A stretch of DNA of 64,000 bases from Escherichia phage moskry, in sequence record MN850651.1. One strand, written 5' to 3'. The position numbers and the translations under genes were made by a program. Positions 427 to 57,670 of this stretch are shown piece by piece (the stretch's first letter is position 1; every line of letters begins with the position of its first letter). The notes below the pieces were generated by a model, which had not been told where the DNA came from, did no database searches, and worked only from the letters and a program-made list of their open reading frames with translations.

Positions 427-445
427 ACTTTTTAAAAATATTTTA

Positions 446-472
446 ACCCCCTAAAGGGACCCGAAGGTCCCC
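446..472 (-). terminator. Conserved stem-loop element (GGGACC-CGAA-GGTCCC), terminator-like, copy 1
   Basis: Perfect 6-bp stem just 3' of the stop of gene 477..758; near-identical element at 18815..18841; no clean U-run. Confidence 0.35.
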
Positions 473-789: not shown

Positions 790-1779
790 TTATTTATAGT
801 AAGAATTATGATTTTCGAGATAGACTTGCTCAAGGAAATCATCCCAGAAACTCATATCTACTTTTTGTTGCATACCATTCTTGGCAGCTCGTTCTGATGC
901 TTGTTCAACTTGGTCAACGATATCTTCTAGGAATTCTTGTACAGTTTTAAACGTATGTTTACCAAGCTTAACATCGAGAATAAATGGAGCATCCTGAAGT
1001 GGGTAAACCAGGTCGCCGGTTTTGTAAATTTCTAATAGTTGAAGTCCACCACGACATGCATGACTCAATGCTTTCCAGTCAATACCTTCGTTGGCTTCTG
1101 CCTTACGAGCACGTTCACCATAGTTCTCTTCCAGTTTAACCAGGATGGCATTGAACTCTTTATTGGTTAACGTGTCTTGGAACTTACGGTCTAACAGATT
1201 ATAGAATGTTTGCTTACCTGTTTTCTCGTTTTCGGTTTCAACCCACGAAGCAAATTCACCTACAGGCAGAACATTCTTCATATGTGATAAACGAATTACT
1301 GCACCATTATCAAAGTATTGTCCCCATTCATTAGAACGTTTAAGGGCTTGACGAAGAACAGCCAGTCGAGAACCCTTGACACCGTATTTAGAAGCTTGCT
1401 TACGGACATACCCTAAATAAGATTTCATGTTAGTGGTATAGAAACGAGACCTGTTATCTTGAATATACTTCCATACATCAGGCAAATCAGATTTAACTAC
1501 TAGACTTTGTGGAGTGTGAAGCATATCTAATGCGACGGTTTCACCATCCGTAGCTAGTTTAAAGAAATATTTGAGACTATACAACTCATGGTCCACGTCG
1601 TCTTTTGTGTTCTTAGAAGATGTGTTATTCGTGTTCTTGCTCATATGTTCTTTAACGTTACCGGTCAAGATATCACGAGCATGAGGGACATAAATTTCTT
1701 TAAAATCAACGTCAGATTCTGGGGTAGACGTTCCATAAAGGTGGCTACCAAAGTAGCCTTTCATAATTGTTTTCATCAT
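790..1779 (-). CDS. Pol-beta-type nucleotidyltransferase-like protein
   Basis: 329 aa; ATG ATG start; N-terminal motif YFGSHLYGTSTPESDVDF fits the GS-x(9-13)-DxD signature of the nucleotidyltransferase fold. Confidence 0.55.
   Translation of the reverse strand: MMKTIMKGYFGSHLYGTSTPESDVDFKEIYVPHARDILTGNVKEHMSKNTNNTSSKNTKDDVDHELYSLKYFFKLATDGETVALDMLHTPQSLVVKSDLPDVWKYIQDNRSRFYTTNMKSYLGYVRKQASKYGVKGSRLAVLRQALKRSNEWGQYFDNGAVIRLSHMKNVLPVGEFASWVETENEKTGKQTFYNLLDRKFQDTLTNKEFNAILVKLEENYGERARKAEANEGIDWKALSHACRGGLQLLEIYKTGDLVYPLQDAPFILDVKLGKHTFKTVQEFLEDIVDQVEQASERAAKNGMQQKVDMSFWDDFLEQVYLENHNSYYK
791..798 (-). promoter_or_regulatory. Candidate late promoter (TATAAATA on minus strand)
   Basis: Plus strand reads TATTTATA about 33 nt upstream of ATG 758; matches T4 late promoter consensus. 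Confidence 0.35.
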
Positions 1780-20216: not shown

Positions 20217-20293
<77 letters not shown>

Positions 20294-20299
20294 AATATA

Positions 20300-20373
20300 T
20301 GACCCAGACCAGATTCGAACTGGTAACCTTTCCCTTATGAGGGGACTGCTGCTAACCATTGAGCTACAGGGCC
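20300..20373 (-). tRNA. tRNA with CAU anticodon (Ile or Met type)
   Basis: 74 nt; T arm ACCAG-TTCGAAT-CTGGT; anticodon loop CTCATAA; acceptor GGCCCTG/CTGGGTC with one mismatch; CCA not encoded. Confidence 0.65.
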
Positions 20374-56671: not shown

Positions 56672-57670
56672 TTATGATACTAATTCAATCCATGCAGGAC
56701 GCAGAACATCTTGCACCATTCTGACTAATTCTTTCTTAACAAGATTCGGATTATCAGATGATGTTAATACAATACCTTCACGAGAAGTTTCTTCCAGAAT
56801 ATCTTGAACAGTCAATCCCATCACTTTGCCAAAATCTTTTGGCGTTACAGTCCCAATCTTAGAAATCACATTATTAATACGATTTAATGTAACATAACAA
56901 GCTAGAACATCAAGCAAGTTTTTGTCAGTTTCGGTTAATGGAACCTGAGTTTTAATAGGCTTATCAGACTTTTTCTTTTCACTGAATTTAGAGTTCTTGC
57001 ACTTAATAGCTACACGAGTACCGTTTGGCAGCCATTTAGGGAAACAGGGCTTCAGAACATAACCTTCTGCCGTATTATCGCCAATAACATTAGCATCAAA
57101 TACGCAATTATTTGCTTCGACAAGGTCTTCCGATGCCGTGGCGTTATAAGCGGCTAAGACGGAATCAAGGTCATTTGGAATCATGATAAGAGAATCAAAT
57201 GTTCCACGTCCAAGCATTGGTGCCATTTTAAAACCGAATTCATTACAGAAATCTTGCATTTCGTAATCGGTCAAATACGTATTATCACCACTTTCTGTAT
57301 TGATAAGGATATCGAACACGTAAAAATCTTTTTCACCGTAGTCAACACCTTTCTGGATTCCACCACCAGCGAATTCACCGAATACTTGATATGATACGGC
57401 TCGAGCTGTGTACATGAATTCCTGAACGGCTTTAATAGCTTTATCATACTTCTTGAGTATGATTTCATAACCATAAAAATCTTCTGCTGGAAGAATAGGG
57501 CCTGTGCGCTTGGCGCATGTGACGTTGTCACGTTCAATTATTAACGAGAAGTTAGTCCCATGGATTTTCTCACGTGCTACCCAAACACCAGTAGTCAAAC
57601 CATTAGTGTAGAGTTTTTCAATAAACTTAGAGTTGTAGTGGTTTTCAAGACTGCTGTATTTCTTAAACAT
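56672..57670 (-). CDS. rnlB: RNA ligase 2
   Basis: 332 aa (T4 Rnl2 is 334); nucleotidyltransferase lysine motif KIHGTNF; long identical stretches to recalled T4 Rnl2 at both ends. Confidence 0.9.

Follow-up and report, generated by a model that had tools for sequence, protein, structure and literature searches.

We analyzed a 64,000-nucleotide stretch of the genome of Escherichia phage moskry (sequence record MN850651.1; the whole stretch is called the window below), with a focus on an open reading frame (ORF) near its start that encodes a predicted nucleotidyltransferase of the RlaP family, the counterpart of nrdC.11 of phage T4. The ORF lies on the minus strand, and its coordinates and those of the other features are collected in Table 1. 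Read from its first ATG (1779) it has 329 codons; a second ATG at 1776 would give 328 residues, and T4 and most database entries have the same start. Because a Shine-Dalgarno-like AAGG is found 7 nt ahead of the second ATG versus 4 nt ahead of the first, ATG 1776 is the likelier start of the gene. The original prediction, made from the DNA letters, had described this ORF and an hG[GS]-x(9-13)-Dh[DE]h motif near its N-terminus, and both are real. The stretch FGSHLYGTSTPESDVDF, in which G11-S12 is followed by ten residues and then by D23-V-D25-F, was the sole match to the pattern h-G-[GS]-x(9,13)-D-h-[DE]-h in a regular-expression scan of the six frames of the window, run on stop-free stretches of at least 60 amino acids (34,809 residues). 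The motif is, judging from conservation, under selection and no chance match, because none of 91 homologs deviates at G11, S12, D23 or D25.

Searches with the protein indicated membership in the RlaP family, which was reportedly named by Burroughs and Aravind in 2016. The Pfam RlaP profile (PF10127) matched with 48 bits against a gathering cutoff of 23 (E 1.7e-12), and PHROG 388 'nucleotidyltransferase' (phrog_388) matched over residues 1-329 with an E of 1.4e-125. The translated ORF agrees at 100% identity with an annotated moskry protein, and the T4 protein NrdC.11 (NP_049709, 'nucleotidyltransferase' in RefSeq) is 77% identical over the full length and carries the same motifs. Its gene has the same position between a mobD.1-like gene and nrdC.10, with synteny also to rI and tk. 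The two loci differ in the upstream gene, which is a mobD homing endonuclease in T4 and a membrane-protein gene in moskry, and in an extra small ORF downstream of nrdC.11 in moskry. T4 NrdC.11 was placed in RlaP cluster 5 by a preprint of December 2025 (PMC12776372). The first 4.8 kb of the window are 97-99% identical to many T4-like phages of E. coli and Shigella (genus Mosigvirus), and similar genes were found in 1,572 out of 50,697 phage records, 1,450 of them covering at least 80% of the protein. Among representatives of 50%-identity clusters, an exhaustive search identified homologs in 3,235 clusters at E <=0.001 and in 741 at E <=1e-30. Overall, we show here by sequence comparison that this Mosigvirus gene is orthologous to T4 nrdC.11 and encodes a long-form member of the RlaP (PF10127) nucleotidyltransferases of the Pol-beta fold; the identification is correct, and the gene was already known. 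Many GenBank phage records (for example moskry, mogra and the AV11x series) label the protein 'thioredoxin', to which it has no similarity; the name was apparently taken over from that of the locus, nrdC.x.

To describe the predicted active site we used an alignment of 91 of the cluster representatives, 34-53% identical to the query. Ten positions are invariant in it (G11, S12, S22, D23, D25, D63, Y132, K236, R243 and G273), and D61 and D85 are conserved in ~95% of the homologs. A third catalytic acidic residue, for which the original prediction had suggested a check, is thus present as D63. When the clade alignment was compared with 16 short RlaP paralogs using hhalign, D63 was paired with D73, which is invariant in canonical short RlaP, and the GS and the other catalytic aspartates were likewise paired with invariant residues. 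The predicted catalytic triad of D23, D25 and D63 is shown here to be intact. An AlphaFold2 model built on the homolog alignment (predicted local distance difference test, pLDDT, 93.5; predicted template modelling score, pTM, 0.82) begins with strand 3-10, G11-S12, helix 12-15 and strand 24-31, which has D23 and D25 at its start. Strand 45-49, strand 62-68 (D63 at its start), the long helix 119-155, a three-stranded insert at 177-201 and a helical C-terminal domain follow. In the model, G11, S12, D23, D25 and D63 sit on a Pol-beta-type sheet, and the model shows here a predicted two-domain architecture of nucleotidyltransferase plus helical domain. Conservation within the family is lowest at residues 140-215, and the moskry and T4 proteins are only 43% identical there, with two indels of four amino acids, as against 90% in both flanking segments. 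This segment, including the three-stranded beta insert, has the look of a hypervariable or swapped module.

The best solved-structure matches of the model are all nucleotidyltransferases (HalB, 3c18 and the kanamycin nucleotidyltransferase KNTase), and comparison with predicted viral structures returned full-length matches to phage nucleotidyltransferases, for example that of Rheinheimera phage Barba19A (template modelling score, TM-score, 0.69). The PfRlaP crystal structure was absent among the matches of the structure and profile searches in the copy of the PDB that was searched, and PDB sequence searches gave nothing meaningful, whether the query was the single protein or the family profile. 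The assignment to the Pol-beta superfamily, the central claim of the original prediction, held on all tests run (Pfam RlaP, invariant triad, predicted fold and structure matches). The predicted structure put the motif on a Pol-beta-type sheet, and in the structure-based search nucleotidyltransferases were the only significant solved-structure matches.

Several other branches of this superfamily were considered and rejected. For a CCA-adding enzyme or poly(A) polymerase head, there was no PolyA_pol or NTP_transf_2 match at E <=0.1 in Pfam and NCBIfam. Barba19A encodes its true CCA enzyme in a gene of its own, near the NrdC.11 homolog. A cGAS/DncV-like nucleotidyltransferase (CD-NTase) of a cyclic-oligonucleotide-based anti-phage signalling system (CBASS) was ruled out by Pfam, NCBIfam and PADLOC searches. 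A minimal antitoxin of the MNT/MntA type was rejected as well: the NCBIfam search of the protein gave only a sub-threshold MntA match (12.9 bits vs a cutoff of 60), and the genes around it code for a membrane protein, a protein similar to y05I and a secreted peptide, with no HEPN toxin. Membership in the Hailong HalB group was dismissed given 15% identity, no HalA-like gene here and no match of the protein to the PADLOC defence-system models. HalB itself (PDB 9dbh), a protein of ~217 residues, forms a tetramer, synthesizes oligo-dA primed on a tyrosine and has the HalA channel as its partner. The kanamycin nucleotidyltransferase ANT(4') (PDB 1kny), with 10% identity and a TM-score of 0.33-0.40, acts on a small molecule and gave no sequence-family match.

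These structural neighbors bear on one alternative, in which the enzyme would be an (oligo)nucleotide synthase or a nucleotidylyltransferase of proteins or small molecules that serves as an anti-defence factor. It could, for instance, supply a HalB-like oligo-dA decoy so that a Hailong-type channel stays shut, modify a host toxin by AMPylation like MntA, or adenylylate a small molecule in the manner of KNTase. However, matches to HalB and KNTase at 10-15% identity reflect the common superfamily fold, the PADLOC and MntA searches were negative as described above, and no HalA, HEPN or toxin partner adjoins the gene in the window. Tested family members did not label protein or DNA, and the conserved neighbors of the clade are RNA repair genes (see below). 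We regard an anti-defence role of this kind as very unlikely.

The original prediction had also stated that the substrate could not be inferred from sequence alone. That was too cautious, since membership in RlaP narrows the class: characterized members act on RNA 3'-OH ends (PMC12776372). Two Pseudomonas RlaP enzymes label RNA and not DNA or protein, adding one or two nucleoside monophosphates (NMP), or deoxynucleoside monophosphates (dNMP), to the RNA 3'-OH with a preference for Mn2+ (PMC12776372). In a cleaved-tRNA mimic they favor the 3' end of the 5' half, and with them a tRNA that is missing one anticodon-loop nucleotide regains part of its aminoacylation; they also label full-length tRNA and rRNA and extend single-stranded RNA, with little specificity for the nucleoside triphosphate (NTP) (PMC12776372). 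The preprint puts RlaP forward as a countermeasure to ribotoxins that, like RloC, not only cut but also remove a nucleotide (PMC12776372), and a survey of jumbo phages made the same prediction for RlaP, the distribution of which follows RNA ligases (PMC7824862). The excision of the wobble nucleotide by RloC was described as damage that phage tRNA repair enzymes would be expected to have trouble reversing (PMC3458546).

From the characterized family members and from gene neighborhoods, we infer the activity and biological role of NrdC.11. We think it reasonably probable that an NrdC.11-type long-form RlaP restores nucleotides at an RNA 3'-OH ahead of the ligation step of phage tRNA repair. In this scheme, an anticodon nuclease of the host, for instance RloC, would cut a tRNA and remove a nucleotide, and Pnkp would then make 3'-OH and 5'-phosphate ends. 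Following this end-healing, NrdC.11 would restore the missing nucleotide by adding one nucleotide or two, without a template, at the 3'-OH of the damaged RNA, using NTPs together with a pair of divalent metal ions (probably Mn2+), and Rnl1 or Rnl2 would seal the break. The proposed chemistry is coherent for T4-type systems because the 3'-OH end of an RlaP product would be directly usable by T4-type 5'-phosphate ligases.

To examine gene neighborhoods, we searched the flanks of homologs at 80 bacterial and archaeal loci (33-52% identity) and 79 viral loci with reference proteins. RtcB, RtcA, Hen1, Ro60/TROVE, Pnkp or Rnl1 was encoded within 6 kb in 15 out of the 80 bacterial loci, and RtcB alone in 9. 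We roughly estimate that, for a single-copy gene and a genome of several Mb, chance would produce such proximity well below 1% of the time. An example is the Nitrosospira locus L025, where the order is Ro60, RtcB, RtcA, NrdC.11-like, canonical RlaP and Hen1, each gene confirmed by Pfam. In this locus, Hen1 is followed by an AAA_5 ATPase of the MoxR type and by a DUF2201 metallopeptidase/vWA protein (L025:9201-12060). At locus L010 (L010:62-3803), an NrdC.11-like RlaP, an NT5C-like protein, a T4-type Pnkp, one further ORF and a T4 Rnl1-type ligase are encoded in this order, co-directional and tightly packed. This is a 4-kb contig binned as Bathyarchaeota, and it resembles a compact T4-style RNA repair cassette that is possibly viral. 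At a third bacterial locus (L028), a Pnkp-type 3'-phosphatase domain is encoded directly upstream of the homolog and RtcB downstream. Among viruses, the homolog of Sinorhizobium phage phiN3, annotated NrdC.11, has an RNA ligase gene on either side, both within 5 kb, and an Rnl1 gene is found near the homolog in two viral contigs. T4 encodes Pnkp (pseT) and Rnl1 (rnlA) elsewhere in its genome. In the window, an Rnl2-type RNA ligase gene (rnlB) is present, directly after a gene 24-like ORF, and Rnl2 is the likely downstream sealing enzyme for the product of NrdC.11.

The viral loci also raise the alternative that the enzyme repairs or remodels tRNA 3' ends (CCA, or other RNA 3' ends after attack by a host exonuclease or toxin), with or instead of a CCA-adding enzyme, and leaves anticodon loops alone. 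In Barba19A the gene for a CCA-adding enzyme is found two genes upstream of the homolog, three further viral loci (L144, L156 and L159) have one within 8 kb, and the labeling of full-length tRNA and rRNA and the extension of single-stranded RNA by Pseudomonas RlaP would suit such a role. However, given a cleaved-tRNA mimic, the characterized enzymes act on the 3' end of its 5' half in preference to an acceptor-type end, their low NTP specificity is a poor fit to CCA restoration, and ligases and end-healing enzymes dominate the bacterial context. A function at tRNA 3' ends seems improbable to us on this evidence.

Several observations weigh against nucleotide restoration before ligation as the role of NrdC.11. 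Activity has been shown for the two Pseudomonas enzymes only and is extrapolated from them to NrdC.11 and the long form. The PF10127 alignment is limited to residues 7-138, corresponding to profile positions 23-145 of 249, and the closest solved structure, HalB, has a different chemistry (oligo-dA primed on tyrosine). In profile-profile comparison the last 124 residues gave no significant alignment to short RlaP (E 0.53 global, E 0.22 local), and because the C-terminal 150 residues are without significant similarity, substrate choice could differ from that of canonical RlaP. No repair gene was found within the searched flanks of 65 out of 80 bacterial loci, and nrdC.11 in the window is without an adjacent RNA repair gene, Rnl2 being encoded 55 kb away in the same genome. 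Lastly, a genome-reduction study obtained viable T4 that had lost the nrdC.11-mobD.3 block (PMC9825161). One deposited genome of a T4 mutant keeps only the last 39 codons of nrdC.11, fused to mobD.1. Viability of T4 without most of nrdC.11 fits an accessory role and gives no positive support; dispensability is as we would expect of a conditional counter-defence or repair gene.

The relation to canonical RlaP suggests how the long form may be specialized. Canonical RlaP (P. fluorescens and P. aeruginosa; PMC12776372) likewise has the Pol-beta nucleotidyltransferase domain with GS and three invariant aspartates, with a helical domain after it as in the model of the moskry protein, and both forms are linked to RNA ligase and end-healing genes. 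The canonical protein has ~255 residues compared with 329 here (~75 more). The hhalign comparison of the clade with short RlaP aligned both Asp motifs with a probability of 94.3% and an E of 1.1e-7, and covered only the first 165 columns. The beta insert of the long form had no significant sequence match to canonical RlaP. A K-x3-[HY]-x2-R...K-[ST]-G pattern is common to the long and short forms by eye and is paired in the global alignment, for which we claim no homology. A short canonical RlaP is encoded near the long form in 21 out of 80 bacterial loci and directly downstream on the same strand in 19; in the L025 pair (L025:6004-7746), the short form has about 255 residues and matches PF10127 over its full length (E 3e-51). 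Neither the 79 viral loci nor the window yielded a second, short RlaP copy. Because a short RlaP accompanies the long form at these bacterial loci, the two forms probably have different jobs and are probably not redundant. More tentatively, and with the odds in our view against it, the NrdC.11 clade may be a functionally distinct long-form RlaP, in which the variable insert and a private C-terminal domain select particular damaged tRNAs. T4-like phages would use it to restore the wobble nucleotide removed by anticodon nucleases of the RloC type, and in bacteria the long form would work with the short RlaP encoded directly downstream.

Table 1. Features of the moskry window discussed in the text
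Feature	Position	Strand	Remarks
RlaP-type nucleotidyltransferase coding sequence (nrdC.11 ortholog)	790..1779	-	ORF; 329 amino acids from ATG 1779; stop codon 790-792
GS...DxD motif, residues 10-26	1702..1752	-	FGSHLYGTSTPESDVDF; G11-S12 and two predicted metal-binding aspartates, D23 and D25
D63 codon, predicted third catalytic carboxylate	1591..1593	-	invariant in 91/91 homologs; start of strand 62-68
Variable middle segment, residues 140-215	1135..1362	-	end of long helix, three-stranded beta insert (177-201), start of helix 206-228
C-terminal helical domain, residues 216-329	793..1134	-	conserved Y220, G221, R223, D234, K236, S239, H240, R243, P260, K271, G273
Upstream membrane-protein gene, 157 amino acids	1776..2249	-	phrog_944; co-directional; TGA stop overlaps nucleotidyltransferase ATG
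Gly/Ser-rich ORF with signal peptide, 93 amino acids	477..758	-	phrog_2243; between nrdC.11 and nrdC.10
Hairpin GGGGACC-UUCG-GGUCCCC (7-bp stem)	455..472	-	follows 93-residue ORF, ahead of nrdC.10; fold -12.9 kcal/mol
NrdC.10-type P-loop ATPase, N-terminal 126 amino acids	2..379	-	62% identical to T4 NrdC.10; phrog_1250; gene runs off window start
Rnl2-type RNA ligase gene (rnlB)	56672..57670	-	PF09414 E 5.4e-24; PF18043 (T4_Rnl2_C) E 1.4e-22
Macro-domain protein, 165 amino acids	5344..5841	-	position of T4 tk.4
GrcA-like glycyl-radical protein, 120 amino acids	7907..8269	-	PF01228
Two tRNA genes, Arg-TCT and Met-CAT	20217..20373	-	ARAGORN

Of the genes that flank nrdC.11 in the window, the membrane-protein gene was found in 43 out of 79 viral loci, upstream on the same strand in 42, and diverges much faster than the nucleotidyltransferase. 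On the other side, the original prediction had placed the gene next to a P-loop ATPase at the window start. The ATPase is real and of the NrdC.10 type, its truncated ORF ending in GAAGIGKTYS, and full-length T4 NrdC.10 has weak AAA-type Pfam matches; it is, however, not directly adjacent, as the Gly/Ser-rich ORF and the UUCG hairpin intervene. The Gly/Ser-rich ORF was found in only 2 out of 79 related viral loci. Stability of the hairpin is no better than that of shuffles (z -0.92), a terminator-like site was scanned at 461..445, and the promoter and terminator scan gave site counts at shuffle level; the hairpin is a possible transcript boundary or stabilizer before nrdC.10.

These neighbors are relevant to the idea of a two-part machine in which the NrdC.10 ATPase would load or remodel substrate for the nucleotidyltransferase. 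The two genes are co-directional neighbors in T4, in the window and in 37 out of 79 viral loci, where NrdC.10 is downstream of the homolog with gaps of 112-2290 bp and differing inserted genes, and the RNA repair island of L025 also has a MoxR-type AAA ATPase. However, NrdC.10 was not found within 8 kb in 42 out of 79 viral loci, some of them with a 65-70% identical nucleotidyltransferase, or in any of the 80 bacterial loci. Within the window the secreted-protein ORF and the hairpin separate the genes, and the ATPase of L025 comes from another AAA family (AAA_5/MoxR) and is accompanied by a vWA partner of its own. We rejected NrdC.10-NrdC.11 as a two-gene module because of this absence and the variable gap, and a joint machine strikes us as highly improbable, slightly more so than an anti-defence role. 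From their distribution, we read the membrane-protein gene and NrdC.10 as T4-group synteny and not as functional partners.

Other features were noted elsewhere in the window. In the syntenic phi25-307 record, the Macro-domain protein at the tk.4 position carries the label 'phosphatase'. Among the ADP-ribose-phosphate products that Macro domains process are those left by the removal of 2'-phosphates from RNA. The glycyl-radical protein is called GrcA in the same phi25-307 record. A glycyl-radical assignment reported for T4 vs.6 agrees with this protein (PMC1524935). The two tRNA genes listed in Table 1 are the only ones that ARAGORN detected in the 64-kb window.

For annotation, the value of these results is that the wrong 'thioredoxin' label can be replaced by RlaP-family nucleotidyltransferase. 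T4 is the founding model of RNA repair, and the loss of the wobble nucleotide to RloC is thought to defeat classic repair by Pnkp and Rnl1. If NrdC.11 does fill in nucleotides removed by RloC-type nucleases, it would supply the step that the Pnkp/Rnl pathway lacks for undoing damage of this kind.
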